Source: a virus
Lineage: Duplodnaviria; Caudoviricetes
Reading direction: 5' to 3' (one strand)
IMG/VR virus record: IMGVR_UViG_3300049782_000072
Coordinates: 1-62,642 of that record
DNA length: 62,642 nt
How positions within the stretch are numbered: the first letter of the stretch is position 1; every line of letters starts with the position of its first letter. This document shows positions 44,491 to 62,634 of this stretch, piece by piece. The notes beneath the pieces are model-generated. The model searched no databases, was not told where the DNA came from, and was given only the letters and a program-made list of their open reading frames with translations. Both the position numbers and the translations under genes were made by a program.

Positions 44491-44526
44491 GGGCGCGGGC
44501 CTTTCGGGATGCGGGTTGGGTGCCGG

Positions 44527-45864
44527 TCAGGGTCCGATGGCGACCCAGGGGCCGGCGAAGCCTGCGGCAACGTTGCTGCCGGGCGTGATGGACGCGGGGA
44601 GTGTGGTCTGGGCGGTGCCGTTGGTGGCGAACCGGTAGGTGCCGGAGGTGAGTCCGGCGTTGACGGCGGTGGCGAGGCCCCCGCTGCCGGTGGCCCGGGC
44701 GATGGTGGGCGCGGTGGTCGCGTTGAACACCATCGCCACCCACACGAACGATCCGGCGGTGAGGTTGACGCCGGTGATCGTGGTGGTCTTCAGCCCGGTG
44801 CTGGCGACGGAGGCGTCGACGCCCGTGGTGGCGAGCCGTGTGCCGGCCGCGCTGTAGAGGCCGACCCAGTTCTGCCCGGCGGTGGCGGTGGCCCCGGCGG
44901 TGGTCACCCACCAGTAGATCTTGGTGATGGTGACGTCGTCCGGGATGTGGATCTTCGACAGGTAGACGGTGCCGTTCGTCAGCAGCGAGCCCGTCGTCGC
45001 GATGACCGGGTCGTAGGTCCAGCCGGTCATCCCGTGATTGACGGGCAGCTGCTCCCCGAACGCGCCGGTCGCCGTGTAGATGCTGCCGGCGGCCGGGACG
45101 GTGACGAGGTTGGCCCCGCCGTTGCGCAGGGTCAGCAGCCGGCCCGTGGTGCCGCCGTCGGTCGACGTGACGAAGATCCCCTGGGCCGCAGTGCCGGCCG
45201 CCGACCCCCGCTTGAGGTCGATGGACAGGGCGGAGGAACTGGTGTCGTCCGTGGCGCCAGAACCGCCGTTGGTGTGCGTCACTTTCAGCGTGCCGCGGGG
45301 CAGCGTCTCGTGCCCCGAGATGTAGACCGCGGACGTCTCCCGGTTGTCGGAGATCAGGTTGAGCGCGGCGGCCACGTCGACGCCGGTGGTGGACGCCTGG
45401 TAGATGGTGACCGCGTGCTGCGTCGGGCTCGTGGTCTTCAGGAACGCGGCCCGGACCGTGTCGTCGGCGGTGATGCCGCCGTTGACGTCCAGACCGCCGT
45501 TCGCGGTGAGCGCCCCGGTGATCGTCCCGCCGGACTTGGTCAGGAACTGGCCGCTGGCCCAGGCGCGGTCGCCGTGCGGGTCCGCTGCGGCGACGTGCGC
45601 GTTGACCTTCGCGGTGGCGTCCGCGGCGGCGGCATCGATGGCGGCGGCTTGCGCTCCGGCCGCGGCTTCGAGGGCCGTCGTCAGCACGGCCGCCGCGGAG
45701 CCTGCCGGATCGGCGCCGACCGTCTCGGCGGTGAGCGTGACCCCGCCCGTCTGGCCGTTGACGCTGGACACGAGGCCGGCTGAGACCTCGACGATGCGGG
45801 CCTGCTGGCCGGTGGTGACCTCGATGGCGTCGCTGAACGCCTCGCCGGTGACTTCGATCCTCAC
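44527..45864 (-). CDS. Fibre-like virion protein
   Basis: VSSVNGQTG, H....DPHGD and GGTITG fibre motifs; Thr/Gly/Ala-rich. Confidence 0.75.
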   Translation of the reverse strand: MRIEVTGEAFSDAIEVTTGQQARIVEVSAGLVSSVNGQTGGVTLTAETVGADPAGSAAAVLTTALEAAAGAQAAAIDAAAADATAKVNAHVAAADPHGDRAWASGQFLTKSGGTITGALTANGGLDVNGGITADDTVRAAFLKTTSPTQHAVTIYQASTTGVDVAAALNLISDNRETSAVYISGHETLPRGTLKVTHTNGGSGATDDTSSSALSIDLKRGSAAGTAAQGIFVTSTDGGTTGRLLTLRNGGANLVTVPAAGSIYTATGAFGEQLPVNHGMTGWTYDPVIATTGSLLTNGTVYLSKIHIPDDVTITKIYWWVTTAGATATAGQNWVGLYSAAGTRLATTGVDASVASTGLKTTTITGVNLTAGSFVWVAMVFNATTAPTIARATGSGGLATAVNAGLTSGTYRFATNGTAQTTLPASITPGSNVAAGFAGPWVAIGP

Positions 45865-46976
45865 CGGGTCACCTCCAGCGACATGACGACCCGGCCCTGC
45901 AGGAGCCGCACGACGGTGGAGCCGTCGACCATCTCCAGGTCCCACAGGCCGTTGCGGGTGAGGGTTTCGGTGACGGCGGCGGGGAGGGCGAGCCGCACCG
46001 TGTCCCCGATGATCGCCAGGTAGTCGGTGAGGTCGAGGAGGAGTTCGCCGTTATCGGAGGCGGCCGCGGAGCGGATCTGGGCTCGGGCGGTCCAGCCGTC
46101 CCACGTGAAGCCGGGCTCGCCGATCACGCGGAGGTTCTGGACGTAGGTGGCGCCCTGCTCAATGTGGAGGTCGAAGATGCCTGCGGCCAAGCCAGCCACC
46201 TCCGGGATCTCGCTGGATGCCGCGTCGGCGGTCAGGGTCGCCTGCGCGGACAGGGCGGCTGCGGTGTGCGCTGAGAGGGCCAGCGCGCCGGTGAGGCTGC
46301 TGTCGGTGCTGAGGGCGGCCGATCCGCGGGCTGCCAGAGTCGCCGTGCCCGTGAGCCCGGTCTGCCCGGACAGGGCGGCGGACGCGGTCCACACGGCCCC
46401 GTTCGAGAGGGTGTTGACCAGGTCGAACTCGGCGTAGTCGGCCGTACCGGCGTCGCGGTGGGCGGACATGTCGAGCGCGCACGCTTCGGCGTCGGTCACG
46501 ATCCACGCGGGGGTGGCGAGGGTGCGGCGGTTCGTCCACGTCGACCCGTCCGGTGACGTGTCCCAGTAGAGGTTGGTGCCGTCCTCGCGGATCCGCAGGA
46601 ACAGGTGGGCGACAGGGTCGTAGGTGATCTCGACGGCGTCGTCGTCCCAGTAGTCCGTCTCCGACACGCACCGCAGGAGCTGGGTGACCGCGTTCATCGA
46701 GAAGCCGACCCGGGTGCCTTCGGTGGCCCCTTGGACGGTGACCGCGAAGTATGCCTCGACGGTGGCCCCGGTCGCCGCGGGGGCGGTGGGCACCTGCACG
46801 AACAGGGTGGCCCCGGCCAACGTCCAGGCGTAGGCGGTCTGGCAGCCGGCGTATCCGGTGGTGCAGGGCACCCGGGCTCGGCCGCCGACGACCGCCGTTC
46901 CGCCGTAGCTGTTGCCCCATTCGGGGCCGAGCGTGCCGGCGTTGAAGTTGTCGACGAGGGTGGACAGGGACGGCAC
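45861..46976 (-). CDS. Virion accessory protein (lectin-like N-terminus, Ig-like C-terminus)
   Basis: C-terminal IEQGAT...ARAQIR...WDLE...RLLQG...EVTR. Confidence 0.65.
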   Translation of the reverse strand: MPSLSTLVDNFNAGTLGPEWGNSYGGTAVVGGRARVPCTTGYAGCQTAYAWTLAGATLFVQVPTAPAATGATVEAYFAVTVQGATEGTRVGFSMNAVTQLLRCVSETDYWDDDAVEITYDPVAHLFLRIREDGTNLYWDTSPDGSTWTNRRTLATPAWIVTDAEACALDMSAHRDAGTADYAEFDLVNTLSNGAVWTASAALSGQTGLTGTATLAARGSAALSTDSSLTGALALSAHTAAALSAQATLTADAASSEIPEVAGLAAGIFDLHIEQGATYVQNLRVIGEPGFTWDGWTARAQIRSAAASDNGELLLDLTDYLAIIGDTVRLALPAAVTETLTRNGLWDLEMVDGSTVVRLLQGRVVMSLEVTR

Positions 46977-46986
46977 CGGCGCCTCC

Positions 46987-47370
46987 CTACTGCAGCGACA
47001 ACGTCAGGGACCCGGCGGTGAGCCTCAGTTCGTCGCCGGCGGCGACGGTGCGGGAGGCGGACAGTGGCCCGTACCAGAGCCGCACGGGTGTGCCTGCGTT
47101 GTCCCAGATCTCGACGCCGACGACGGTGGCGGCCGGCATGCCCGTCCACACGAGGTCGGCACTGTTACTGGTGGCGCCTGCGACGGCCGCGGCAACGGAC
47201 AGGTTCTGCCGCGCGTAGGAGCCGCCGGTGACCTCGGTGCCCGCGGTGGTGTCGTCGCCGTTCGCGGTGACGAGGGCGACCTTCAGCGGGGTGGTGGGGG
47301 CGGTGGCGGACAGGCCCAGGATGAAGTCGAGGGCCCGGTTCTCGCCGGTGTTGGTCAAGTTGTCGGCCAC
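46987..47370 (-). CDS. Fibre-associated structural protein
   Basis: EVTGGSYARQ...IWD...GD...AGSL. Confidence 0.65.
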   Translation of the reverse strand: MADNLTNTGENRALDFILGLSATAPTTPLKVALVTANGDDTTAGTEVTGGSYARQNLSVAAAVAGATSNSADLVWTGMPAATVVGVEIWDNAGTPVRLWYGPLSASRTVAAGDELRLTAGSLTLSLQ

Positions 47371-47456
47371 GCGGCCTCCTCACGGGTGGGCGCCGCGTGG
47401 CGCAAGGTGGGAGCCCCGCCGTCCGGGACCGGAGCAAGCACGGGCGGCGGGGACGA

Positions 47457-47705
47457 TCAGGCGACTCGGCGGCCGCGTTGCGGCATGGGCCGGTACGTCT
47501 TGGCGCGCTCTGCGATCTCGGGGAGGGCGTACATGGTCTTGTACTCGTGGCCCTGCCCGGTGAGCTGTCCGTCGCCTTGGAAGCGGTGGATCTTCCCGCG
47601 GCGGGCCCACTGCCGGATGACCTGGCCGGGTACGCCGGTCGCTTGGGTCGCTTCGTGCTCGTAGACGAGGTCGTCGGGGTACAGCTCGGTAACGTCCACA
47701 GGCAC
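47457..47705 (-). CDS. Small HTH DNA-binding protein, first late gene
   Basis: EA...TGVPGQVIRQWARRGKI. Confidence 0.7.
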   Translation of the reverse strand: MPVDVTELYPDDLVYEHEATQATGVPGQVIRQWARRGKIHRFQGDGQLTGQGHEYKTMYALPEIAERAKTYRPMPQRGRRVA

Positions 47706-47717
47706 CCCCGGGCATGC

Positions 47718-47746
47718 AAAAGGCCCCCGGCAGTAGCTGGGGGCCT
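47718..47746 (-). terminator. Intrinsic terminator in the late leader
   Basis: Minus strand AGGCCCCCAG-CTACTG-CCGGGGGCCT followed by TTT. Confidence 0.75.
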
Positions 47747-47783
47747 AAGAGGCTTGCGGGCACACGTGTCCTGCCCTGGGGGC

Positions 47784-47813
47784 ACTGTGACATACGGTGA
47801 TCGTCGGGGTCAA
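47784..47813 (-). promoter_or_regulatory. Putative late promoter (TTGACC-N18-CACAGT)
   Basis: Housekeeping-sigma-like -35/-10 on the minus strand pointing into the late operon. Confidence 0.55.
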
Positions 47814-47883
47814 GCCGCTTCGATAGTCCGGGATACCCGGCTATAACAAACGACATCCAGAGATACCCAAAGGTTGCTCAGCG

Positions 47884-48351
47884 TCACTGCTGGTTGGTGG
47901 TCTTGGCCCACATGCCGCGGGTGCGGCTGTGGACGGTGCGCTGGTCTACGGGCCCGGTGTAGTGGTGGTGGTGCACGTCCGGGACGGCGTCCTTGGCGCC
48001 GCGCAGGAGCCGGGCAACGGCGAAGATCGGCACGGCCACGAACGCCGGGGCGGCGCAGATCATGCCGATGACCGCCGGGTTGGCGTACCCGGAGGCGAGC
48101 ATCGCGCCGATAGCGATGGCGCCGGGCGGGATGGTGGCAACGCTCGCGGACAGCATGACCGTGCTGAGGTCGACGGCCTTCTGCGACATCGGCGGCCGGC
48201 CCGGTTGCGGGACCGGAGGCGCCGTTCCGTGCCGGGGCACGGGGGTCTTGTCGCGGTAGCTGGTGACGAAGTCGGCGATGATCCGGTCCGCCTCGACGGC
48301 GGCCTCCTGCTCAGTCATCGCGGTGCGGATCGGGTCGGTCTCGGCGGGCAT
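47884..48351 (-). CDS. Spd-like (plasmid spread) two-TM membrane protein
   Basis: PPVPQPGRPPMS, two TMs, HHHHYTGPV..RT tail; directly downstream of traB. Confidence 0.6.
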   Translation of the reverse strand: MPAETDPIRTAMTEQEAAVEADRIIADFVTSYRDKTPVPRHGTAPPVPQPGRPPMSQKAVDLSTVMLSASVATIPPGAIAIGAMLASGYANPAVIGMICAAPAFVAVPIFAVARLLRGAKDAVPDVHHHHYTGPVDQRTVHSRTRGMWAKTTNQQ

Positions 48352-48398
48352 GGCGGTCTCCTGCGGGTGATCGTTTCGGGTGGGCTGAGGGCTGTTGG

Positions 48399-48570
48399 GG
48401 CCGTCCTGACCCCCGTCCGGGCCTGTGTTTGTGCTGGTCAGGGCTCGGCTGGGGCCCGCCCGCGGGGATGTGGAGCCCGTCCAGGCCGGACGAGGCTGCG
48501 GCAGCCAGGACGAGGGGCGGACGGGGGCATATCGGATCAAACTAGGGCACTGGACGGGGGTTGGACGGGC
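48399..48570. repeat. clt-like cluster of 8-bp repeats GGACG(A/G)G(G/C)
   Basis: Five direct copies (48488, 48508, 48519, 48552, 48563) and three inverted copies (48399 with one mismatch, 48411, 48475) in the non-coding gap after traB. Confidence 0.6.
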
Positions 48571-48571
48571 C

Positions 48572-50674
48572 TCACAGGCTGATGTCGTAGCGGTTGAGCA
48601 CCGCCCGGCGGACCGCGGCGAGCGGGTAGACGGACACCTTGCTGCCGTTGACCTCCTGCCGGCGCTTCTCCTCCTCGGTGCGCGGCACGAGCGCGGCCAG
48701 CCGATCGGCGGTCACCGGGTAGCCGGCCGAGCCGAGCCCTTCGGTGACCCGGGCCGCGGGCAGCACGTCGACGCCCTCCGCGTACAGGCCGAACAGGGTG
48801 GCGAGGATCTCGCCGTCCTCGCCGGCGGCACGCAGCCGGTCCATCGGGCCGAGCGGCAGCGTCCCGGCTTCCTGCCGCAGCGCGTAGGCGCGCTGCATGA
48901 TGGCGGCGACCTCGTCGTCGTCGTAGTAGTCGCCACGGACCAGCTCCGGCTCGGCGCCCTCGCCGTCCATGTAGATGCCCACGCCGCGCTGGGACTTGAG
49001 GATGTCCTGCGCGTTGTGGCCGGCGGAGGCGTAGCCCTGGCCGAGGATCGTGTCGGAGGCCTGCGGGGTGAGGCAGCGCATCGCCCAGCGAATGGACAGG
49101 ATGTCGCGGATGCCGGTGGGCACCGAGTCGCTGTCGGGCTTCTGTGTGGCGGCGAGGCTGATGATGCCGAGCGCCCGACCCTGCTGGACGATCAGCCGCA
49201 GCAGCCGTTCCATCTCCTGCCGGGTCTTCTGGTCGGCGGCGGCGCCGTAGGACGACCATTCGTCGACGAGGAGCACCGCCAGGCAGACCCGCGGGTCGAC
49301 GGCCGCCATCGCCTCGGTCAGCTTCCGGGAGCCGTGCTCCTTGGCCAGCGCCCGCCGTTCTTTGATCTCGACGTCCCACATGTGCTGCAGGATGTCGAGG
49401 AGCCTGTCGGGATCGCCGTCGGTGTCGAACATCGCGGCGATCGGCTCGAACGGGGTGATGTCGGCGCCGGCCTTGCCGTCGGCGAGGTACATGCGCACCG
49501 TCGGGTCGAGCGCGGCAGCGAGCAGCAGGTCGTTGGCGGCCGCGGACTTGCCGGAGCCGGGCTCGCCACCGAACAGGCCGGATCGCTCGACCCACGAGGT
49601 GAAGACTTCCTCGCCGCGCAGGTTGACGCCCATCCGGATGGGCTGCCACAGGTTGACCCGCTCGGCGTCGAGCAGCGGGCCCCGGGTGGGCTTGGTGGAG
49701 AACGGTAGCTTCAGCGACACCCGCAGATGGATGGTGTCTTCGCGGTTGCCGCGGGTCTGGTGGACCTGCTGCACGGAGACGCCGAAGCCGTTGGCGATGC
49801 CTTCGCGGGCGCCGAGCGCCTTCTTGGCGGGGATGCCGGACGGCAGTTGGAAGACGACCTGCCAGGCCTTGCCGTCGGCGGTGAGGGTGCAGGGGGTGAT
49901 GAGGCGCAGTTCGTCGTCGGCGGCGATGACGCGGGCGTCGCGGTAGACCCGGTTGACCATGCTGTCGGTCATGCGGTCCCCGTCGCCGATCTTGGCGTCG
50001 CGGTCGGTGTACAGCTCGCCCGCGGTGGTGCGCCGGCCGATCAGCGCGAACGTGGCGAGCGTCGCGGCGGTGGCTGCGAGCCCGCCGGGCGCGCCGAGCA
50101 GCTGCAGTCCGGCGCCCTCGACCCCGGCGATCGGCGCGAGGGCGGCGATGCCGCGCACGGCACGCCGCATGCGGGCTTCGCGCTGCGCCGACCGGTACTT
50201 GCTCATCGCGGACGCCGAGTCCTTGAACGCGTCCTCCATCTCCCGGCGGCGCTTCTCCTTCTCCTTGCCGGGCATGAGCCGCCGGTCGTGCGCCCACTTC
50301 GCGGCCTTGTAGTCGCGCTGCGTCTGCTGCAGCTCATGCCGGGCGGCGGTCACCTGGGCGCCCTCGGTGCCCTGCACCCACAGCGCCACGCGGCGGATGC
50401 CGCGGCCGATCTGGGAGGCGTGCCCGTGCTCGGTGGCCTGCCGGCGCAGCCACTTGCGGAAGCCGCGCACCGTGTTGACCCGACCGACCTGGGCGCGGCT
50501 CTTCCACCCGATGCGGGTCTTCGTCCACGCCGGGGTGAGGGGGGTGTCGCCCATCAGGTCGACGGACGTGGCCGGCTTCTCGACCGCTGCCTCGCCGGGG
50601 CCGTTCAGGTAGCCGCCGACGATGCGCTCCCACTCCGGGTCCGGGCTGCTGCTCGGGGTCGTCTCGATGCTCAC
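48572..50674 (-). CDS. traB: TraB-like FtsK/SpoIIIE conjugative DNA translocase
   Basis: N-terminal TM region, GGEPGSGKS, ADGK, LLVDE, QGRALGI...ATQKP, C-terminal wHTH-sized tail; 700 aa; Spd/Kor-like neighbours. Confidence 0.85.
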   Translation of the reverse strand: MSIETTPSSSPDPEWERIVGGYLNGPGEAAVEKPATSVDLMGDTPLTPAWTKTRIGWKSRAQVGRVNTVRGFRKWLRRQATEHGHASQIGRGIRRVALWVQGTEGAQVTAARHELQQTQRDYKAAKWAHDRRLMPGKEKEKRRREMEDAFKDSASAMSKYRSAQREARMRRAVRGIAALAPIAGVEGAGLQLLGAPGGLAATAATLATFALIGRRTTAGELYTDRDAKIGDGDRMTDSMVNRVYRDARVIAADDELRLITPCTLTADGKAWQVVFQLPSGIPAKKALGAREGIANGFGVSVQQVHQTRGNREDTIHLRVSLKLPFSTKPTRGPLLDAERVNLWQPIRMGVNLRGEEVFTSWVERSGLFGGEPGSGKSAAANDLLLAAALDPTVRMYLADGKAGADITPFEPIAAMFDTDGDPDRLLDILQHMWDVEIKERRALAKEHGSRKLTEAMAAVDPRVCLAVLLVDEWSSYGAAADQKTRQEMERLLRLIVQQGRALGIISLAATQKPDSDSVPTGIRDILSIRWAMRCLTPQASDTILGQGYASAGHNAQDILKSQRGVGIYMDGEGAEPELVRGDYYDDDEVAAIMQRAYALRQEAGTLPLGPMDRLRAAGEDGEILATLFGLYAEGVDVLPAARVTEGLGSAGYPVTADRLAALVPRTEEEKRRQEVNGSKVSVYPLAAVRRAVLNRYDISL

Positions 50675-51918
50675 TGCGACTCCTTCTTCGCGGCGGTCTG
50701 CTTGGCGGTGAGAGAGGCCGCGCGACGAGCGGCCGGGCTGTACTTCACGTCGCCCGTGGTGCGCCGTCCGGGGCGCGCGGGCGGGTTGTAGACGCGGGGC
50801 TTCTTCGCACCGGGCACTTGCGATGCGACCTGCTGTGATGATCGGTTCACGGGGCGCTTCTGCCGGGCGGCTTCGACCCTCGCCTCGGCGGCGTTGCGCA
50901 GTCGGATAATCTCCGCGGACTCGGACGGGTCGGCACCCTCGACGTCGCGGTGCGCGCGCTTCCACACGGCCTCGGTGACGGTCGTCTCGCCGAGTGCCGC
51001 GGCGAGCCGCAGGGCGTGCTGCCACACCTTCGGGAACTCCTTGGCGCGGGCCTGCGCGAGCTTCTCCGCAGCCTCCGCGGCGGCACGCTCGGCGGCCTCC
51101 TTCTCAGCGGCGCGGCGCTTCTCGTCCGCGGCCTTGCGGGCGGCTTCCGCACGCTCGGCCTTGGCCTGCGCCTTGCGCTGCCGCCGCGACAGCTTGCCGT
51201 CCCGCTTGCGGATCTGGCCGTGCTCGTGGAGGTCGTACACGCCGGGGCCGGCGATGGACGCGAACGCGGTACCGATCGCTGTGGCCGGGTCGAAGGCGTG
51301 CAGCCCGTGCCACAGGTTGATGGCGGCAGCGATGAAGGCCAGTACCCAAGCGATGAGCCGGTAGTGCCAGTGCGGCCGGTGGTCGGCGGCTGCGGCCCGG
51401 GCGCCCTTGAGGACGACCCACGCCCCACCTTCGAGCATGATCGGCGCGGCCATCAGCCACAGAGCGTTGGGGTTGTAGAACGCGGCGATCTGCACGGGCA
51501 GGGCGACGATCGAGCAGACGGCGTAGAACCTGAGCGCGTACTGGCGCCACTGCTCCTCGGCGGCAGCGACCTCGGCGGCCTTCGCCGCTTCTGCCTGCTC
51601 CTGCGCGGCGGCCTTCTCATCGGCCTCGCGAGCGGCCCGTTCCTGCTCCTCGCGTTCCCGGTTGAGCTTCGCGATGCGAGCCTCCCGGGCGGCCTGCTCC
51701 TCGCGGGCACGGGCCTCGGCCTTGTCGTTGGCGATCTTCTGCTTGCGGGCTTCCTCCGCGGCCTTGATCTTCTCGGCTTCGGCCTTGCCCTCGGCTTGGA
51801 TGCGGGCGGCTTCGGCTTCGGCGGCGGCGCGGGTCCGGATCGCCTCCGCCTCGGCCAGCGCGACCGGGTCGAAGCCGTGGTCGTGGCCGTTGAGCCTCTC
51901 GATCGACGTGGCGGTCAC
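50671..51918 (-). CDS. Coiled-coil multi-TM protein (SpdB2/DUF2637-like transfer accessory)
   Basis: Coiled coils flanking about four TMs with AAINLWH; GTGA-coupled to traB. Confidence 0.65.
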   Translation of the reverse strand: MTATSIERLNGHDHGFDPVALAEAEAIRTRAAAEAEAARIQAEGKAEAEKIKAAEEARKQKIANDKAEARAREEQAAREARIAKLNREREEQERAAREADEKAAAQEQAEAAKAAEVAAAEEQWRQYALRFYAVCSIVALPVQIAAFYNPNALWLMAAPIMLEGGAWVVLKGARAAAADHRPHWHYRLIAWVLAFIAAAINLWHGLHAFDPATAIGTAFASIAGPGVYDLHEHGQIRKRDGKLSRRQRKAQAKAERAEAARKAADEKRRAAEKEAAERAAAEAAEKLAQARAKEFPKVWQHALRLAAALGETTVTEAVWKRAHRDVEGADPSESAEIIRLRNAAEARVEAARQKRPVNRSSQQVASQVPGAKKPRVYNPPARPGRRTTGDVKYSPAARRAASLTAKQTAAKKESQ

Positions 51919-51939
51919 GGGTATCAGTCCTTCCGGGTC

Positions 51940-52128
51940 TCAGCTGGCGGTGACGCGGGCGCGTCGGTACAGGCGGGTTGATTCGCCTTGGCGGGCGGAC
52001 GGCTGGGGGGTGAGCCCGTTGAACCGGTTCTCGCCGGGGGCGGTGGGCTGCCAGGCCCGGGCGGGCTTGGGGCCGCGGCTGTCGTCGGTGCGGGCGGCGC
52101 CGCCTTCGGTCTCGTTGTGCCAGGCCAT
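51940..52128 (-). CDS. Hypothetical protein (transfer operon)
   Basis: TGATG coupling. Confidence 0.5.
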   Translation of the reverse strand: MAWHNETEGGAARTDDSRGPKPARAWQPTAPGENRFNGLTPQPSARQGESTRLYRRARVTAS

Positions 52129-52325
52129 CAGGCGGCCCTCACCGGGGTCGGACGGTGCTTCAGCCAGGCGGCGACGGCGGCGAGGGCGAGCACGTGGCCC
52201 GGGATCAGGCCGACGATCACGGCGGCACCGGTCGCGGCCATACCGATCGGGGCGGCGGCCGCCGGCCACAAGCCGACGACGATCAGGAAGCTGGTCAACA
52301 GCAGCCAGCGGACGTAACGGGACAT
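52128..52325 (-). CDS. Small hydrophobic Spd-like membrane protein
   Basis: 65 aa, almost entirely hydrophobic. Confidence 0.6.
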   Translation of the reverse strand: MSRYVRWLLLTSFLIVVGLWPAAAAPIGMAATGAAVIVGLIPGHVLALAAVAAWLKHRPTPVRAA

Positions 52326-52366
52326 GGCGACCTCTTCGGGGGTCGGAACGGTTGGGGTGGTCTGGT

Positions 52367-52416
52367 TGGCGCCCCGGGCCGGATTCGATCCGGCAGCATC
52401 ACGCCGGGACCGGGGC
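52367..52416 (-). ncRNA. tRNA-like mini-structure 1 (acceptor stem, T-arm, CCA; no D or anticodon arm)
   Basis: GCCCCGG-N15-GCCGG-ATCGAAT-CCGGC-CCGGGGC-G-CCA. Confidence 0.6.
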
Positions 52417-52422
52417 TGAGGG

Positions 52423-52593
52423 TCAGCTGAGGCGCTCGACCTTGACGTCGAGGTCGCGCGGGTCGGTCTTGGCGGCCTTCACGCGACGATCGAGGTCGGC
52501 CTGGCTGTAGACGGTCACCGAGTCGGTGGAGCCGCCGAGCGGGTTGACCTTCTGGCCGGTGCGGCTGGTGGCGGTGAGCTTGAACTTCGGCAT
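52423..52593 (-). CDS. Hypothetical 56-aa protein
   Basis: GAGGA RBS; MPKFKLTATSRTG... Confidence 0.6.
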   Translation of the reverse strand: MPKFKLTATSRTGQKVNPLGGSTDSVTVYSQADLDRRVKAAKTDPRDLDVKVERLS

Positions 52594-52634
52594 GGGCTAG
52601 TCCTCTCGGGTCGGGTGGAGGATCGGGCTACCGG

Positions 52635-52787
52635 TCAGTCGTCGGATGCGGTGGAGGTGTAGGTGTTGCCGTGCTCGTCGGTGACGGTCTCGCCCGGCTG
52701 CACCGTGAAGGCCGACTCGACGTCCACGCCCTGCTCCTGCGGCGTGACGATCTCCCCGTCGGAGAAGCCGAACACCAGCCCGCCCAT
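52635..52787 (-). CDS. Small acidic protein
   Basis: TGATG coupling. Confidence 0.5.
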   Translation of the reverse strand: MGGLVFGFSDGEIVTPQEQGVDVESAFTVQPGETVTDEHGNTYTSTASDD

Positions 52788-52957
52788 CAGCGGCGGCCCT
52801 TCTTCAGCTCGGACGCGCGGTCGAGGTTCGCGTCCATCGCCTCGCCGTAGGCCCGGGCCAGGTCCGGCCGGCCAGCCGCCTCCATGCGCTTCTGGATCTC
52901 GCGGCACTCGGCGGCGCCCTGCTCGTAGGTCCCGGCCGACTGCTTCTTCTTGAACAC
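52787..52957 (-). CDS. Small hypothetical protein
   Basis: GAAGGA RBS with GTG start. Confidence 0.55.
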   Translation of the reverse strand: MFKKKQSAGTYEQGAAECREIQKRMEAAGRPDLARAYGEAMDANLDRASELKKGRR

Positions 52958-52993
52958 GGTGGTCCTTCCGGATCGGTGAATGTGGGTGGTGCG

Positions 52994-53041
52994 TGCCCCG
53001 GGCCGGATCCGATCCGGCGGCATCGCGCTGGGGGCCGGGGC
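52994..53041 (-). ncRNA. tRNA-like mini-structure 2
   Basis: GCCCCGG-N16-GCCGG-ATCGGAT-CCGGC-CCGGGGC-A; paralog of 52367-52416. Confidence 0.55.
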
Positions 53042-53091
53042 TGGGTGCCGGGCGGGCAGGGGGATGGACCGCCGCCCAGCGGATCAGGGGG

Positions 53092-53334
53092 TCAGGCGGC
53101 GGCCGGGCGGGCGACGTGCAGCGGCAGGCAGTGCGTCCGCCAGTCCTGGTGCACCGGGCACGTGAGCCGCTCCGAGTCCGGCACCGAGTACGCGGTCTCG
53201 CGGTGCAGGGCGCGGGAGAAGTCGTCGCCGAACAGGTCGGCCATCACATCGGCGACCGTGACGCGCTCCCGGCGGCGGGCGGCCAGCGGAGTCGTCGCGG
53301 CGAGATCGGCATCGGACAGAACGAACGGAGACAT
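53092..53334 (-). CDS. Hypothetical protein
   Basis: GAGG RBS; CPVH..W..HC. Confidence 0.55.
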   Translation of the reverse strand: MSPFVLSDADLAATTPLAARRRERVTVADVMADLFGDDFSRALHRETAYSVPDSERLTCPVHQDWRTHCLPLHVARPAAA

Positions 53335-53505
53335 GGCGATCTAGACCTCTCGGGTCAGTAGGGGGTGTGGGTGGGGAGCCGCGGGCGGCGGGAAAGGGGG
53401 CGGTTTCAACCGCCACCCGCGGCGGTCTAGGTGGGCGTCAGCCCTGGGGGTGGGGCCTCGGGGGCCTGATCGGAAGCTCGGGTTTCGTGCGCTCGTGCTC
53501 GGCGC

Positions 53506-53724
53506 TCACGACGCGTCCCGCACCAGGCGCAGACGCGGACCGGGTCCCGGCTGCTGCTGGGGCGCTGCGGTGGCCGGCGTGAACCAGTGGCCCAGACGGC
53601 GCTGCGTCACCGGATCGACGACCGTCACCAGCACCGCCGGCGACTCGCCATCCCACGCCGGCAGCTTCGCGACGATCTCCTGCGCCGCCGACTGCAGCAG
53701 CGCCAGACGCTCCCGCTCCGTCAC
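53506..53724 (-). CDS. Hypothetical protein
   Basis: GTGA coupling. Confidence 0.5.
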   Translation of the reverse strand: MTERERLALLQSAAQEIVAKLPAWDGESPAVLVTVVDPVTQRRLGHWFTPATAAPQQQPGPGPRLRLVRDAS

Positions 53725-53885
53725 GACACGGCCTCCGCCACGATCAGGAACGCGTCGGCGTCCAAGTCCATGACGACCGTGGCCGGAGTACCAGCCGCCG
53801 TCAGCTCGGCGGCCTTCTCCTCCGCCGGCCAGCTGCCGCGCGGATTGCCAGCCGGGATGCGGTCGAGGACCTCGCGGGCGCTCAC
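53721..53885 (-). CDS. Hypothetical protein
   Basis: GTGA coupling; P.GSWPAEE.A. Confidence 0.5.
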   Translation of the reverse strand: MSAREVLDRIPAGNPRGSWPAEEKAAELTAAGTPATVVMDLDADAFLIVAEAVS

Positions 53886-54193
53886 GCCACACCACCGATG
53901 AGGTCCAAGCGGCCGGCGTCGGCGAGGGTGGCGCGGGCCCCGGCGGCAACGTCCTCGGCGTGGGCCAGGCTGTCCGCGTCGAGGTCCGTCATCTCGCCGG
54001 ACGCGGCGACCGCGGACAACTGCGCAGCCCGGGCGGAGGCCACCTCGTAGCGGGTCACTGCCCGGACGATCTCGACGGGGATCGTCAGCGCCAGCTCCAG
54101 CGAGCGGACCGCAGCAACAGCGGCCGACGACAGCGGGGCGGTGCCCGCGTTCTCGGCGCGCTCGGGCGCCGGGGTGATGGTCGTGCTGGTCAT
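53882..54193 (-). CDS. Hypothetical protein
   Basis: GGAGG RBS; coupled. Confidence 0.55.
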   Translation of the reverse strand: MTSTTITPAPERAENAGTAPLSSAAVAAVRSLELALTIPVEIVRAVTRYEVASARAAQLSAVAASGEMTDLDADSLAHAEDVAAGARATLADAGRLDLIGGVA

Positions 54194-54396
54194 CAGGCCA
54201 CCTCCGTGGCGGTCGGGGCGGGCGCGCCCGTCGAATTCAGGACGGACTCAGGGATACGCAGAGCGCCGGTCGCCTTGTCGCCCGGCGTGTAGGGCTGCCC
54301 GTTCCTGTAGGCCGGGAGAAAGCCCTGGTGGATCCAGCGGTAGACGGTCGCGGGGTGCACTCGGAAGTGCGTCGCGACGTCTCGAACTCGCAGCAT
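54193..54396 (-). CDS. Excisionase-like HTH_17 protein leading the transfer operon
   Basis: LRVRDVATHFRVHPATVYRWIHQG.L.A...LRIP. Confidence 0.82.
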   Translation of the reverse strand: MLRVRDVATHFRVHPATVYRWIHQGFLPAYRNGQPYTPGDKATGALRIPESVLNSTGAPAPTATEVA

Positions 54397-54420
54397 TACG
54401 CCTCCGATCGAGTGCTTCGC

Positions 54421-54524
54421 ATCTGTGAGCAACCTTAAAGGTTTGCCGAATAAGGTAGCAAGCCTCGCAGCACAGATTTGGCCAGGGAGTCACCGGTAGG
54501 CGTAAGCATCAAGGGCTTAAGGTT
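54421..54524. promoter_or_regulatory. Divergent kor/tra control region with palindrome AACCTT-A-AAGGTT (54431-54443)
   Basis: AT-rich palindrome, related TAAGGT half-sites, and ATCTGTG/CACAGAT inverted repeat. Confidence 0.5.
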
Positions 54525-54570
54525 GGTGAGGTCAGAAGAGGGATCGCCAGCCGGAGGGGAGGCTCAACAG

Positions 54571-55101
54571 ATGGCCGATATGCAGCGAACACCCGACTCG
54601 CTTGCCTACGTCAAGCCGCGCGGCGCTGGGGAAACAGACGCCTGGAGTGAAGAGACGGGGCAGCGGGGAGGGCAGCGGCTCGCCGAAGTCGCCGAGGTTG
54701 TCCCCCCACGCGAGGTGGCCAGCGCTCTGCGCCTCTCGACCGGCGCGAAGGCAGTCGTGCGGCGGCGCATCATCCTGCTCGACGGCGACGTCATCGAGCT
54801 GGCCGACTCGTACTACCCCCTCTCCGTCGCTCGCGGCACAGCGCTCACTGAGAAGCGAAAGATCAAGGGCGGCGCTCCGACCCTGCTGGCAGAGCTGGGC
54901 TACCGTCCCCGGCACGTCACCGAAGATCTTGAGTTCCGCCCGGCCAACGAGTTCGAGTGCACGACCCTCGCGCTACCAGACGGCGCCAGCGTGCTAACCC
55001 TCCTGCGCACCACATCCACCGAAGACGGGAGCCCCTACGAAGTGCAGCTGATGGTCATGAAGGCGCCTCGCCGCCTCCGCTACGAGATCGAGGTCGACTG
55101 A
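54571..55101 (+). CDS. UTRA-only protein (GntR/HutC effector domain without HTH)
   Basis: EVVPPREVA.ALRL, DSYYP, GG.P.LL.ELGY; paralogous to the C-terminus of the next gene. Confidence 0.8.
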   Translation: MADMQRTPDSLAYVKPRGAGETDAWSEETGQRGGQRLAEVAEVVPPREVASALRLSTGAKAVVRRRIILLDGDVIELADSYYPLSVARGTALTEKRKIKGGAPTLLAELGYRPRHVTEDLEFRPANEFECTTLALPDGASVLTLLRTTSTEDGSPYEVQLMVMKAPRRLRYEIEVD

Positions 55102-55102
55102 C

Positions 55103-55864
55103 ATGCCCGAGCCGCACGAGGACAAGCGCCCGCTCGCTGAGCGGATCGCCGCCGAGATCAGGAAGCTGATCATGTCGGGCGACTGGGAGCCCGGCCAGCA
55201 GGTGCCAACGAACGAGAAGCTCAGAACGCAGTTCAAGACGTCTAACGTCACCATCCAGCGCGCCTTGCAGATCCTCAAGGATGAGAAGTTCCTTGAAGGG
55301 CAGGCGGGTGTGGGCGTCTTCGTTCGTGGTGAACGCGCACAGACGATCCAGCCCGCCCACTACATCGCCCCCTCTGAGCCGGGCCAGCCGTACCGATGGC
55401 TGACCGAGGCCACAAACCGGCAGCAGCGCGGGAAGTACCGCATGCTGGAAGTCGGCGAGGTCGTGCCACCCCGGGAAGTCGCCAAAGCGCTCCGCCTCGA
55501 CGAGGGCAACACGGCGATGCTGCGCTCACGCATCGGCTTCCTCGACGACCAGCCGGCCGAGCTCGTGCACTCCTACTACCCGATCGAGCTGGCGCGCGAT
55601 ACCCGCCTCGCGGATCGACGGCTCATCCCAGGCGGGTCCCCAGCACTCCTGCACGAGATGGGCTACCCGACACGCTCACAGGACGACGCCGTGGCGGCTC
55701 GGCCAGCGACCACCGAGGAGTACGAAGCGCTGGAGATCCCTCGCGACGTACCAGTCATCGAGGTCTTTCGGGTGGTCTACAGCGACGGCCAGAAGCCGAT
55801 CGAGGTCACGCTCCTGACCAAGCCTGCACACCGGTTCAAGATGGGCTATCACATCGAGCTCTGA
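55103..55864 (+). CDS. KorSA/TraR-like GntR-UTRA repressor
   Basis: GntR wHTH plus UTRA; divergent from the traB operon. Confidence 0.87.
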   Translation: MPEPHEDKRPLAERIAAEIRKLIMSGDWEPGQQVPTNEKLRTQFKTSNVTIQRALQILKDEKFLEGQAGVGVFVRGERAQTIQPAHYIAPSEPGQPYRWLTEATNRQQRGKYRMLEVGEVVPPREVAKALRLDEGNTAMLRSRIGFLDDQPAELVHSYYPIELARDTRLADRRLIPGGSPALLHEMGYPTRSQDDAVAARPATTEEYEALEIPRDVPVIEVFRVVYSDGQKPIEVTLLTKPAHRFKMGYHIEL

Positions 55865-55880
55865 CGCGAACCCGAAGTAG

Positions 55881-55905
55881 CCCCCGGTCGTTGACCGGGG
55901 GTTTT
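55881..55905 (+). terminator. Intrinsic terminator
   Basis: CCCCCGGTC/GACCGGGGG followed by TTTT. Confidence 0.7.
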
Positions 55906-56000
55906 CGCGTATCCCGACAGGAGGCTTGATACATGTATGAGTACGGGATACGGTCGATGCCGTGAGAGTGGCCGACGCCACACGCTCAGTTAGGAGTGGC

Positions 56001-56480
56001 ATGTCTGTGCCTCCCGAGCGCACCGCGCTCTACCGCCTTTTCGACGCCGAGGGAGTGCTGTTGTGCGTCGGCATAGCGAAGGACGTCCGTAAGCGCTGGC
56101 GAATGCACGAGTGGGAGAAGACGTGGTGGCACCTTGTCTCAGACAGCCACATCGACTGGTTCCCTTCTCGTAGCGATGCTCGCGCAGCGGAACTTGCCGC
56201 CATGAGGAATGAGTCGCCCCTGTACAACGGCGTATGGCATCCCGACGGGAGCTACACGCAGAACAAGTACGACGACACGGCGGAGAGAGAGCATGCAGTA
56301 GAGCAGCTACGCCGCGACATCGAGAACGGGACGCTGAAGCCTGGCCAGATGATCCGCATCACTCGGCTTGGTCGTCGGTACGGCGTCTCAGCGCTCAGTG
56401 TTGGGATGGCGCTTCATGCCCTTCCGCCGGGATCAACGTTCCAGCGGGGCAACTATCGATATGTCGGCCCGGAGGCGTAA
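56001..56480 (+). CDS. GIY-YIG-like domain fused to a GntR-type wHTH
   Basis: ALYRLFD...LLCVGI...RW..H...AE..AM..ESP.YN followed by IENGTLKPG...YGVS. Confidence 0.72.
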   Translation: MSVPPERTALYRLFDAEGVLLCVGIAKDVRKRWRMHEWEKTWWHLVSDSHIDWFPSRSDARAAELAAMRNESPLYNGVWHPDGSYTQNKYDDTAEREHAVEQLRRDIENGTLKPGQMIRITRLGRRYGVSALSVGMALHALPPGSTFQRGNYRYVGPEA

Positions 56481-56588
56481 GTCTCCTCGTCACGCGAACG
56501 GCCGGGCGCTACCAACGCCCGGCCAGTTCATTCACCAGCGGTGCCAGCCGCTGATCACCAACCCCTACCAAGGAATCGGAGTACACCC

Positions 56589-56882
56589 ATGACCTTAGCG
56601 CAGAGTTGCCCTATCCCTCAGCAGGCAACGTGCACCGACATCCTCGATGCCCCACTTCCCCAGCTCCTCGCCGAGCTGGACGTCGAGCTGGTCGACTCGT
56701 CGATCACGGACGCCGGCTTCTTCGGCGCCCTGGTGGAGCGTCGTGACGGCTCCCGCATCCTGTCGATGCCGGTCGGCCGGTCGGCGTTCGAGCGCGACAC
56801 GGCGGCCCGGATGCTGCTGGCCGAGGGCCTGGGTCTGGATGCCCCGCCGGTGCCGGCGCCGCTTGCGGTGTCCCGCGCCTGA
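56589..56882 (+). CDS. Hypothetical protein
   Basis: GGAG RBS; followed by a hairpin at about 56898-56923. Confidence 0.6.
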   Translation: MTLAQSCPIPQQATCTDILDAPLPQLLAELDVELVDSSITDAGFFGALVERRDGSRILSMPVGRSAFERDTAARMLLAEGLGLDAPPVPAPLAVSRA

Positions 56883-57016
56883 CCGCCCCACCAGCAACGC
56901 CCCCGCCTCTCCGGCGGGGGCGTCCGCATGTGCGCCCACTTCGCGCCCTTGTGCCGCTTTCGCGCGCGGTCGACCGTTGTGTGGGTTGGTTGTCGGTGCA
57001 CTGACAGGGGGCCTTC

Positions 57017-57271
57017 GTGCAGCGTGGGTGGAACGACTTGGCGGGCCGGTTACTGCTGACTGCGGCGGTGTTCCTGCACCGCACGGTGGCGGGCAGGGTG
57101 GCGCGGGAGCGGTGGCAGCTGCGGCGGAACGCGGCGTTGCGGGCGGCGTGGCGGCATGGTGTGCCGGTGGCGGAGCTGGCGGCGCGGCTGGGGCTGTCCG
57201 AGGGATGGGTGCGTCAGGTGCTGAACGGGCGGAAGCCGGCCGAGCCGCCTGTGGTCGAAGAGGCGGCGTAG
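57017..57271 (+). CDS. Small HTH protein
   Basis: GVPVAELAARLGLSEGWVRQVL. Confidence 0.6.
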   Translation: MQRGWNDLAGRLLLTAAVFLHRTVAGRVARERWQLRRNAALRAAWRHGVPVAELAARLGLSEGWVRQVLNGRKPAEPPVVEEAA

Positions 57272-57286
57272 GCGGACACGCGAATG

Positions 57287-57316
57287 GGCCCCGCTCCCCA
57301 ACCGGGGAGCGGGGCC
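57287..57316. terminator. Bidirectional terminator at the right edge of the transfer cassette
   Basis: GGCCCCGCTCCCC/GGGGAGCGGGGCC. Confidence 0.7.
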
Positions 57317-57320
57317 TTCG

Positions 57321-57620
57321 TCATGCCCGGCGCCATCTGCGGCGCTTCTGGGGCTGCTGCGCGATGGGGCTGTCAAGCCATCGCGACGGCCCGACGGACC
57401 ACTGCGGGTAGCCGCGGTGGCCGCAGGGGTGGAACGTCAGGATCAGTACGCCGTCGCGCCATTCCTCGCTGAAGTCTTGCGGCACGGGCCAGGCGTGCAC
57501 GGGGCAGGTGTCGTCGAGCGGCCCGCCGGTGGCCACGGCGCGCTCCCAGTTCGCCGTCTTGCGGACCCCCATGGGAAAGATCAGTTCACGGTCGTGCCAC
57601 TCGCGGCGTCGGATGCTCAC
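57321..57620 (-). CDS. Hypothetical protein
   Basis: GTGA coupling. Confidence 0.5.
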   Translation of the reverse strand: MSIRRREWHDRELIFPMGVRKTANWERAVATGGPLDDTCPVHAWPVPQDFSEEWRDGVLILTFHPCGHRGYPQWSVGPSRWLDSPIAQQPQKRRRWRRA

Positions 57621-58246
57621 GCCGCCCGCCTCTCAGCGAGCGGCAGGTGAAACAGCCCTTCCCGGTCGTACTGGGTGAGGCAGGTGTCGCAGCGCATGGC
57701 GGGGCTTTCGATGGTGATGCGGAGGGTGGCGCCGCAGGTGCAGACGACGCCGAACCTGCGTGCCGGCCGTTCGCCGCCGGTGGCCGACTCGCACTGCCGC
57801 CGCAGCTGCCCGGTCTCGCGGGCGAACTCGTCGAACGCCCCGTGCTCTTCGGCGGCCCACGGCAGCAGGACGCGGAGCCGCTGGACGACTTGGTCGCACT
57901 GCTGCTGGAGGTCGCCGTCCCAGCGAGGGTGCCGGTAGCCGAGGATGTCGTGCCAGTCGATCAGCCACGTCTGCAGGACGGTCACCACGCCCCCACGGGC
58001 GGCCAAGGACAGCGGCTCCAGCCGCAGCGGCAGCGGCGCGGTGCGGCTGCCGGACACTGCGGGCCCGGCCGTCCCGCTGCCGGGGTGGAGGTTGTCGGCG
58101 AGGCGGGCGTACAGCCCGTCGGGGCCGGCGAGCGTCGTGAGGTCGCGGTCGACGCGCTCGGTGCAGGGGCGGCAGGCCTGGTGGGTGAGCTCGTGCTCGT
58201 ACAGGCCGTTGCGGCAGATCGTGCAGGCCGGGGCGAGTGCATCCAT
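57617..58246 (-). CDS. Zn-binding protein at the end of the early operon, candidate late-gene regulator
   Basis: CTIC...CRPC N-terminus and CTCG...CDTC C-terminus; position analogous to lambdoid Q. Confidence 0.55.
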   Translation of the reverse strand: MDALAPACTICRNGLYEHELTHQACRPCTERVDRDLTTLAGPDGLYARLADNLHPGSGTAGPAVSGSRTAPLPLRLEPLSLAARGGVVTVLQTWLIDWHDILGYRHPRWDGDLQQQCDQVVQRLRVLLPWAAEEHGAFDEFARETGQLRRQCESATGGERPARRFGVVCTCGATLRITIESPAMRCDTCLTQYDREGLFHLPLAERRAA

Positions 58247-58400
58247 CGTCGGCTCCTTGTGCGGGGCGGTGCGGGCTACTGGTGGTTCTGGTTGGCGCGT
58301 GCTGCTCGCCGCCGGGCCCGCAGCATCCGGTCGTGCCGGGCGAGGAGTGGCCAGGCGGCGAGTGCGGCGGCGGCCGCGGCGGCGAGCACGGGCCACTGGG

Positions 58401-62508: not shown

Positions 62509-62634
62509 CCTCGGTGGCGGGCGGGCAGTTGCCGCAGTCGCAGGGCTGGTCGGGGAAGTGCTCGGTGTTGCGGTAGTGCCGGACCGCGGCGTCCCAGGCG
62601 GCCTTCGGCAGGGACCACTCCGGGGGCGGGCCGG
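62509..62634 (+). repeat. Terminal direct overlap, copy 2
   Basis: Identical to 1-126; followed by 8 non-matching bases. Confidence 0.95.

Follow-up and report, generated by a model that had tools for sequence, protein, structure and literature searches.

The transfer cassette

The DNA analysed here (the window) is one complete IMG/VR virus record, IMGVR_UViG_3300049782_000072, of 62,642 bp and with a CheckV completeness of 96. Positions 47884-57316 of this tailed-phage genome hold a cassette of genes resembling the conjugative transfer system of the Streptomyces venezuelae plasmid pSVH1, including a homologue of its DNA translocase TraB that is directly followed by a cluster of short repeats resembling clt, the site recognized by TraB. 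A previous reading of the DNA made without database searches (hereafter, the sequence-only reading) had listed the genes of this cassette, and Pfam, PHROGs and helix analysis found them in place as listed (Table 1). The GC content being about 70%, genes were called by GC3, the GC content at third codon positions; the Pfam scan covered 75 open reading frames (ORFs) of the window (30 + 45) and the PHROGs scan 77 (30 + 47).

The cassette consists of a minus-strand operon and a divergent pair of regulatory genes. The regulator has the features of the TraR/Kor class, namely a GntR winged helix-turn-helix (HTH) and a UTRA domain, encoded divergently from an spd-tra operon, and is 26.8% identical to the GntR regulator of pSVH1 over 257 aa (E 2.6e-20). 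Its UTRA-only paralogue resembles the C-terminal half of the pSVH1 regulator (30% identity, E 1.2e-11). A palindrome in the control region between the two transcription units is a candidate operator. The first gene of the operon encodes an HTH_17 protein with a TIGR01764 excisionase domain (E 1.1e-5) and probably starts at ATG 54397, behind the ribosome-binding site (RBS) GGAGG. Scans of 47300-57700 for sigma-70 promoters and for terminators were uninformative: no promoter was predicted, and the 2 terminator-like sites compare with an expectation of 3.3.

The six small ORFs that follow have no family match among Pfam, PHROGs and NCBIfam-type profiles and are patchily conserved among relatives; the last of them encodes a 65-aa membrane protein with hydrophobic helices. 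The next gene product, which has no Pfam match, contains three hydrophobic helices (residues 129-147, 152-170 and 188-206). It is 32.2% identical to SpdB2 of pSVH1 over 214 aa (E 3.5e-12) and 32.9% identical to a DUF2637 protein of pFP11 over 246 aa (E 1e-14). As is characteristic of SpdB2, it is a predicted integral membrane protein, encoded directly upstream of traB, and homologous to SpdB2 itself. Beyond traB and the repeats lies the gene of a small protein with two transmembrane (TM) helices (65-83 and 94-112), which is 33.8% identical over 145 aa to an ORF of the pFP11 spd region (E 7.5e-12). This gene most likely starts at ATG 48351 and not at TTG 48540, because the longer form is matched by the PHROG from residue 66 onwards and because an RBS-like GGAG precedes the ATG. 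With this start, a non-coding gap of 220 nt is left after traB.

At the outer edges, the 113-aa ORF and the HTH_31 gene that lie downstream of the GntR genes are kept in a related prophage of S. azureus (71% and 78% identity), and the MerR-like gene on the other side belongs to the phage backbone: it was found in six relatives that have no TraB, adjoining the methyltransferase gene in the three that have one.

Identity of the translocase

The 700-aa ATPase is 41.5% identical to the characterized TraB of pSVH1 over 684 aa (E 1.4e-137), with a Walker A motif (GEPGSGKS) at residue 370 and a Walker B motif (AVLLVDE) at 466. The TM anchor that the sequence-only reading had assigned to it corresponds only to a weakly hydrophobic, Ala/Gly-rich helical hairpin at about 184-222, which stays under the Kyte-Doolittle threshold. 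When the protein was compared by tblastn with 72,556 plasmids, 80 records gave a match, 56 of them from Streptomyces and 17 covering at least 80% of the query; pSVH1 and pFP11 are among the matching plasmids. In a quick maximum-likelihood tree of 22 rows, TraB of the window and of nine prophage relatives forms a clade (SH-aLRT 99) that is sister to TraB of pSVH1 and pFP11 (99). This clade stands apart from the chromosomal FtsK of S. azureus and from three short Tra proteins (SH-aLRT 96) of the type found in the integrative and conjugative elements of actinomycetes (AICEs). The ATPase thus falls inside the TraB clade and away from septal FtsK, as the sequence-only reading had supposed. The S. 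azureus FtsK is matched by tblastn with an E value of only 0.005 over 114 aa, and the three AICE Tra proteins of that species (455-581 aa), members of the other clade, have no significant similarity to the TraB of the window.

Membership in the TraB family rests on these direct comparisons because the NCBIfam model plasmid_TraB (NF041214) does not cover the pSVH1-type family; the protein of the window reaches E 5e-5 and 22 bits with this model, against a cut-off of 800. An AlphaFold2 model, computed from a 53-sequence alignment (pLDDT 88.7), has a motor domain that superposes on FtsK structures with a TMt of 0.64-0.68 (2ius and 6t8b; TMt 0.68 for 2ius_D, E 9.9e-16 for 6t8b_B), and it also superposes on TcpA, the coupling protein of pCW3. 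The C-terminal 115 residues are modelled as a domain of helices and strands (pLDDT 79.6). Together these comparisons identify the ATPase as a pSVH1-type TraB and predict that it is a translocase of double-stranded DNA (dsDNA).

Among phages, the protein matches the FtsK/SpoIIIE-like family of PHROGs (E 2.7e-118), filed under "moron, auxiliary metabolic gene and host takeover", so that genes of this kind have already been catalogued, without interpretation. The 9.4-kb region had no megablast match among 50,697 phage records, and tblastn of TraB against these records gave one (26.8% identity over 46% of the query); no relative in a cultured phage was found in this collection at that sensitivity.

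The repeat cluster and the TraB C-terminus

The 220 nt past the traB stop codon contain direct repeats of the CCCGTCC type followed by inverted GGACGGG copies. Five of the 29 CCCGTCC/GGACGGG sites of the window are found in this gap, where 0.12 would be expected, and the gap is the densest 230-nt interval for CCGTCC in the entire record. As a positive control, an identical count of 7-mers was made after traB of pSVH1. It returned GACCCGG and ACCCGGA, in agreement with GACCCGGA, the consensus reported for recognition by the pSVH1 TraB (PMC5133688); the method therefore recovers the known site.

The survey was extended to 17 rows, or 16 distinct loci, comprising the window, 11 close relatives and five divergent TraB-like genes from phages of the same family of large terminase subunits (TerL); two of the rows (L012 and L016) are one prophage and were counted once among the loci. 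All 17 have a gap of 200-260 nt after traB, in which the commonest 7-mer occurs three to seven times, against an expectation of at most 0.26. The identity of this 7-mer follows that of the TraB C-terminus. In the window, L006, L008, L012/L016 and L017 (six rows, five loci), a C-terminus of the form ..VSVYPLxAVRRAVLxRY.. goes with CCCGTCC. The type B C-terminus, ..KRVWGWTLxxLQxAR, goes with CACAGGG in L007, L009 and L010. L011, L018 and L013, each with a C-terminal variant of its own, have CCTGGAC, TGCACCC and CCCGTGA, respectively. Among the divergent TraB genes, the motif is GACCGGG in L050 and L072, GGCGTGA in L060 (where GGCGTGAT can be read in the sequence) and CAGTGAG in L063. Thus, as judged from the alignment and the 7-mer counts, the repeat motif changes together with the C-terminal domain of TraB across 16 related phage loci. 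L007 (record G002, 76.6 kb) is instructive, as its TraB is 94% identical to that of the window over residues 1-609, while the C-terminus and the repeat have both been swapped. The phage with this natural exchange of a domain and a site has only 38% identity in TerL.

In plasmids, the specificity of TraB for its own clt has been documented for pJV1, pSVH1 and pIJ101 (PMC9513070), and TraA of pWTY27 is likewise described as specific for its own clt (PMC3583192). A repeat cluster that co-varies with the TraB C-terminus is what one predicts if phage DNA is a substrate of TraB and, taken with the specificity known from plasmids, it means that the phage DNA carries what defines such a substrate. We conclude that the phage has its own cognate clt, the predicted recognition site of its TraB. 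The natural swaps of C-terminus and repeat also amount to a ready-made specificity code for engineering.

Distribution among related phages and prophages

A TraB relative is present in eight IMG/VR records, seven of which also have a relative of TerL; the exception is a 24-kb fragment of 58% completeness. The order traB, fibre-like genes, methyltransferase, TerS, TerL is kept in six other IMG/VR records. Viewed from the side of the terminase, the best 80 of 112 IMG/VR relatives of TerL were taken, of which 35 records of at least 45 kb make up a near-complete set. PF01580 matches (E at most 1e-3) were found in 15 of these 35, in ORFs of 697-980 aa, with 10 above the cut-off of the model, and tblastn suggests two further, weak cases of TraB among the TerL relatives. 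Three species-representative genomes carry TraB as well: S. azureus ATCC 14921 (93% identity), S. thermocarboxydovorans JCM 10367 (78%) and Streptomyces sp. NPDC094143 (74%). The co-occurrence of terminase and TraB, which the sequence-only reading had proposed to look for, is therefore borne out by metagenomic records and isolates alike. The mismatch in record G002, where TraB is almost that of the window and TerL is distant, shows that the module moves between phage backbones. Close relatives that have no TraB retain the MerR-like gene, TerS and TerL, and some of them also the methyltransferase and the Prim-Pol genes, which places the cassette at the junction of the early and late regions.

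The relative in S. azureus ATCC 14921 is a prophage of about 67.2 kb (G009 C38:62686-129908), with a TraB 93% and a TerL 96% identical to those of the window. It is bounded by a perfect direct repeat of 91 bp (C38:62686-62776 and 129818-129908), and the cassette lies about 30 kb from either end. The integrase gene adjoins one copy of the repeat (attR), into which the 3' end of a 732-aa host ORF extends, which means that integration took place in a protein-coding gene and not in a tRNA gene.

Estimates of dN/dS are 0.13-0.47 for traB, 0.11-0.28 for orthologous spdB2-like alleles and 0.05-0.11 for terL; traB and spdB2 are under purifying selection. Relatives vary in the SpdB2-like protein, with 92% identity in some and about 30-43% in others. 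At least 83% of the sampled words of 47401-57400 are present in each of seven soil-metagenome runs; these belong to six samples and six studies, and two of them are possibly the source of the record.

Comparison with known elements

The cassette shares with pSVH1 the order of a divergent GntR gene, small genes, spdB2, traB, non-coding repeats directly after traB and a further gene of the spd region, with 41.5, 32 and 27% identity for TraB, SpdB2 and the regulator. The systems of pFP11 and of plasmids of the pSG5 type are close to that of pSVH1. The carriers differ: pSVH1 is a 12.6-kb rolling-circle plasmid with a Rep protein, whereas the window is a 62.6-kb temperate tailed phage with a tyrosine integrase. 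The repeat motifs are also different (GACCCGGA in the plasmid, CCCGTCC in the window) and, in contrast to pSVH1, the operon of the window opens with the HTH_17 gene and is accompanied by a second, UTRA-only paralogue of the regulator.

A direct precedent for the union of a phage with Streptomyces-type conjugation is, by its description in print, pZL12 (Zhong et al. 2010, J Bacteriol 192:3747). Its size is reportedly about 90 kb, and virion data are reported to exist for it. Two other articles present pZL12/phiZL12 as a conjugative Streptomyces plasmid-phage that has phage particle genes, ParA and ParB (PMC3583192, PMC4487206). As such it is an autonomous plasmid, whereas an integrase is encoded in the window, whose relatives are found integrated. 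In the Pfam scan of 75 ORFs, a set that does not take in every small ORF, neither ParA or ParB nor a plasmid Rep came to light. A phage-plasmid of the pZL12 or P1 type was accordingly rejected as a description of the window: maintenance genes are missing from the 75 ORFs, an integrase is present and relatives are att-bounded. Given pZL12, the concept of a phage equipped for conjugation is less new than the sequence-only reading implied.

The screen devised for AICEs asks for an integrase, a Rep and a Tra of the FtsK/SpoIIIE type (Ghinet et al. 2011, PMC3218068). With its tyrosine integrase, Prim-Pol and TraB, the window would pass this three-marker screen, and it shares with AICEs of the pSAM2, SLP1 and pMEA300 type site-specific integration, excision to a circle and a single FtsK-like Tra. 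It differs from them in encoding a complete virion and a lysis module, on which ground its classification as an AICE was rejected, and in having a TraB of the long plasmid type instead of the short Tra of pSAM2. An AICE nested in the phage was rejected as well. As the sequence-only reading had it, the cassette has no Rep or integrase of its own, none being found among the scanned ORFs of 44-57 kb; the Prim-Pol in its vicinity is no Rep of the cassette but a backbone gene of the phage, because TraB-less relatives also have it. No att sites flanking the cassette were seen in a repeat scan limited to a spacing of 400 nt, a dedicated long-range att search not being part of it.

Plasmid unnamed2 of Streptomyces sp. 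NBC_01005 (NZ_CP108705.1; 88 kb, circular, with ParA and ParB) has a structural module in the same order as that of the window, 47-88% identical at the protein level, as well as homologues of the methyltransferase, of the two-TM protein (43%) and of the product of 57617-58396. No match to TraB was found in it at E 1e-5. This plasmid (L014/L015) is an unannotated phage-plasmid that also carries a PhlD-type polyketide synthase gene, and NZ_CP109578.1 is a second one of the kind.

In other phyla, phage and conjugal transfer functions are also found in one DNA unit in Phi1207.3, a conjugative prophage of Streptococcus pyogenes, and in the tandems of a phage and an integrative and conjugative element (ICE) of Streptococcus, which are described as arising by accretion of the two elements. 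These tandems and the E. coli element p1002-1 are said to rely on a relaxase and a type IV secretion system for single-strand transfer. The window differs from such hybrids in having a single dsDNA translocase and a short repeat site within the phage's own operon structure. p1002-1 is described as the fusion of a conjugative plasmid with a phage-plasmid (10.1101/2025.03.14.643293). In print, no integrating Streptomyces prophage with TraB, Spd and TraR of the pSVH1 type and a clt was found, in a search outside which most subscription journals and supplements lie; the AICE lists in the supplements of PMC9513070 and PMC3218068 might include Tra genes embedded in prophages.

Proposed virion-independent transfer and its alternatives

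In pSVH1, traB alone is reported to be needed for transfer, whereas spreading within the mycelium and the formation of pocks require spdB2, spdB3 and spd79; TraR is the GntR repressor, in the absence of which the plasmid cannot be established (PMC4447253). By homology with this system and from the evidence for a clt, we consider it probable that the window is a temperate Streptomyces siphophage endowed with a complete dsDNA-transfer module of the pSVH1 type and its own clt, by which the phage genome can move without virions. Transfer, DNA binding, regulation by the GntR protein and the form of the substrate are all inferred from these two sources. The GntR protein would keep the operon off, and relief from the repressor would start the process. 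The C-terminal domain of TraB would then bind the CCCGTCC repeats on the phage DNA, and a TraB hexamer would pump the unprocessed, double-stranded genome into a neighbouring hypha. Together with the Spd proteins, among which the SpdB2-like protein may be a pore or septum protein, TraB would also bring the genome past the septal cross-walls within the mycelium. What is moved might be the excised or replicating circle, which the tyrosine integrase would supply and resolve, or possibly the prophage in its integrated state plus neighbouring chromosomal DNA. The outcome would be a virion-independent spread and the lysogeny of a whole multicellular host.

Several observations weigh against this interpretation. 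The N-terminal membrane segment of TraB is weak. The best matches of its C-terminal domain are winged-helix domains (TFIIIC, Rex, RAP30, Zur, IclR and MCM8; root mean square deviation 2.5-4 Å over 60-73 aligned residues), with Z scores of 4.2-5.5 that lie below the distinctive level of the tool. The circularity of the window consists of an overlap in which bases 1-126 repeat 62509-62634 at 100% identity and the last 8 bases are discordant, and the IMG/VR class of the record is linear; the 126-bp overlap in itself, a k-mer overlap, fits a circular or concatemeric template. Twenty of the 35 near-complete relatives have no PF01580 match, from which it follows that the module is accessory. All that the phage-plasmid NZ_CP108705.1 offers in place of TraB is a 717-aa P-loop protein, with a sub-threshold NF041214 match (E 3.5e-4) and no repeats after its gene. 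Logan contigs from four further soil runs (X4-X7) cover all 30 bins of the region, with no listed piece bridging the borders of the cassette, and none of the sequencing runs listed is recorded as RNA. Finally, a donor whose prophage is excised is normally lysed, whereas a donor in conjugation has to stay alive.

This last clash is avoided by the chief rival explanation, by itself an unlikely one, in which the integrated prophage acts in situ: TraB bound to clt would mobilize the prophage and flanking host DNA in the manner of an Hfr, with host gene exchange or a benefit to the lysogen as the main effect. In its favour, relatives are integrated prophages in isolate genomes, and TraB of pSVH1 is reported to mobilize chromosomal DNA by way of chromosomal copies of its recognition sequence (PMC5133688). 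Yet the ends of the window overlap, as is expected if traB and clt are carried on a free circle or concatemer, and a transferred fragment would need homologous recombination to become established, while the phage has an integrase of its own.

A passenger role for the cassette also seems improbable to us. It would be what is left of an AICE or plasmid that recombination had brought into a moron hot spot, and would be either inert for the phage or of some other use, such as to exclude incoming plasmids or phages or to retard the growth of neighbours. The accessory nature of the module speaks for this, as do its variable junction site, adjoining the accessory fibre-like genes at 44236-47370, the mosaic of neighbouring alleles seen in the SpdB2-like protein and the moron category to which PHROGs assigns the FtsK/SpoIIIE-like family. 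Against it, traB and spdB2 are under purifying selection and the catalytic motifs are intact, while the ORFs scanned include no integrase or Rep of the cassette's own and no flanking att was seen. Moreover, each copy keeps its cognate repeats, exchanged together with the C-terminus that would read the DNA, which is hard to explain unless TraB acts in cis.

A chimera, in which the assembly would have joined a phage to a conjugative plasmid present in one soil sample (a misassembly of which the sequence-only reading had warned), is highly improbable, and is refuted for the family: the source of the record is of the metagenome type and Logan contigs in related runs are short and branching, but the order from traB to TerL recurs in six other IMG/VR records and in independently assembled isolate genomes of three Streptomyces species, one with att-bounded ends.

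A more far-reaching version of virion-independent transfer can be entertained, though we hold it only tentatively. In it, this Streptomyces phage lineage encodes its own cell-to-cell movement system, comparable to the movement proteins of plant viruses, with TraB, Spd and clt moving the genome through hyphal walls and septa. If so, a single infection or induction event could convert or consume a whole mycelium. Pocks are the classic phenotype of spreading by TraB and Spd, and S. azureus may provide an example. The genome note on strain ATCC 14921 attributes its spontaneous pocks to the plasmid pSA1.1 and the lysogenic phage SAt2; it mentions a phage gene cluster in the genome that is thought to be SAt2, and has no spoIIIE/ftsK-like gene annotated. 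A six-frame search of this genome gave 15 PF01580 matches. This set includes a 924-aa FtsK-like protein, EccC-like proteins of 1340-1506 aa, the three short AICE-type Tra proteins and the TraB of the prophage. The TraB-carrying prophage is probably SAt2, because the single phrog_9 terminase match and the single PF05065 capsid match of the genome both lie within it, phrog_9 being the only terminase family searched for. Should the phage indeed possess a movement system, the spontaneous pocks of S. azureus may be the visible sign of prophage-driven spreading by TraB and Spd. The availability of a close relative of the window in this culture-collection strain makes the idea directly testable.

Gene flow through phages and gene flow through conjugative elements are usually kept apart. 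The integrating lineage described here, which is common in Streptomyces genomes and in metagenomes from soil, combines a virion with a minimal dsDNA-transfer machine and its recognition site. If the proposed transfer takes place, lysogeny could spread by contact and within the mycelium in the absence of free virus, and current views of phage host range, immunity and defence would need revision where filamentous bacteria are concerned. The lineage would also supply the long-held idea of a double descent of AICEs, from plasmids and from phages (PMC2440964), with a living intermediate.

The phage genome around the cassette

The sequence-only reading had described an intact siphovirus genome. Pfam and PHROGs concur, with a complete virion and lysis set that includes terminase, portal, capsid, tail tube, tape measure and lysin, as well as an integrase (Table 1). 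The late module on the minus strand also encodes a VG15/MuF-like protein, adaptors or connectors, a tail terminator, a chaperone and distal tail proteins, the capsid being of the HK97 type; the early module comprises the replication initiator, the DnaC-like loader, a RecE-like exonuclease, a Cro-like HTH protein and an excisionase-like protein. The nearest cultured phages by TerL, such as the Streptomyces phages Kamino, Amela and phiCAM, are about 50% identical. No match above 51% identity was found in the phage collection, and two plasmid matches, both from NBC strains, reach 77.5%. The window contains no tRNA genes and thus no tRNA-based clue to an att site.

Table 1. Features of the cassette and of the surrounding phage genome (window coordinates).
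Feature	Coordinates	Strand	Evidence or remark
MerR-like backbone gene, 82 aa	47457-47705	-	phrog_2474 E 8.6e-5; downstream edge of cassette
Two-TM protein, Spd-region homologue, 155 aa	47884-48351	-	phrog_19266 E 1.5e-47
clt-like non-coding repeat cluster, 220 nt	48352-48571		directly after traB stop
TraB, FtsK/SpoIIIE-type translocase, 700 aa	48572-50674	-	PF01580 E 1.9e-8
SpdB2-like membrane protein, 415 aa	50671-51918	-	charged helical N-terminus, then TM helices
Six small ORFs	52128-54193 (53882-54193, 53721-53885, 53092-53334, 52787-53023, 52423-52593, 52128-52325)	-	GC3 0.89-0.95; position is that of small spd genes in pSVH1
HTH_17/excisionase-like protein	54193-54432	-	PF12728 E 1.1e-9; first gene of minus-strand operon
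Divergent control region	54398-54477		read from sequence: palindrome AACCTTAAAGGTT at 54431-54443; CTTAAGGTT again at about 54517
UTRA-only paralogue, 207 aa	54478-55101	+	PF07702 E 2.9e-18 (residues 62-196); no recognisable HTH
GntR+UTRA regulator (TraR/Kor-like)	55103-55864	+	PF00392 E 4.1e-16, PF07702 E 2e-19; divergent from transfer operon
ORF, 113 aa, and HTH_31 protein, 84 aa	56541-57271	+	PF13560 E 3.8e-6 (57017-57271); downstream of GntR genes
Prim-Pol	41676-42320		near cassette; also in TraB-less relatives
TerS	41155-41613	-	terminase pair 39435-41613, 7 kb downstream of cassette, same strand
TerL	39435-41174	-	terminase pair: PF25673 E 4.4e-41, phrog_9 E 5.5e-69
Portal	38023-39438	-	Pfam/PHROGs
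Scaffold		-	Pfam/PHROGs
Capsid (HK97-type)	35638-36597	-	Pfam/PHROGs
Tail tube	32417-33004	-	Pfam/PHROGs
Tape measure, 1508 aa	27033-31559	-	Pfam/PHROGs
Endolysin-like	21932-22825	-	Pfam/PHROGs
Tyrosine integrase	12363-13682	+	phrog_1 E 3.5e-17; PF14659 E 4.8e-4
Excisionase-like gene	10785-11069		Pfam/PHROGs
Replication initiator	1309-2175	-	Pfam/PHROGs
DnaC-like loader	618-1337		Pfam/PHROGs

Fibre-like genes lie at 44236-47370, between the cassette and the methyltransferase gene and remote from the tail module. They encode a HylP hyaluronidase-like protein (44527-45945), a phrog_14065 protein (45861-46976) and a Gp80 fibre-like protein (46987-47370); L037 and L101 are among the TraB-less relatives that do not have them, and the genes frequently co-occur with the TraB cassette. 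The tape measure protein matches the "endolysin" family phrog_971 (E 7e-122), with a faint NlpC/P60 match near residue 1310, and its gene contains a 57-bp tandem repeat of 2.8 copies at 28646-28805. Tandem repeats of 21-23 bp (2.5-3.8 copies, 1771-1874) in the 5' half of the replication-initiator gene are possible origin iterons.

Besides the tyrosine integrase, the genome encodes a 281-aa serine recombinase (18552-19397) with a Resolvase and a partial Recombinase domain. The region of 13.7-21.9 kb is a mixed-strand cargo zone, in which a short gene with only a GntR HTH (15455-15799) and a DUF6221 gene are found. The early region further contains a D12-class adenine methyltransferase gene (60822-61637) and a Lar-like restriction-alleviation ORF (61900-62292), both likely to have anti-restriction functions.

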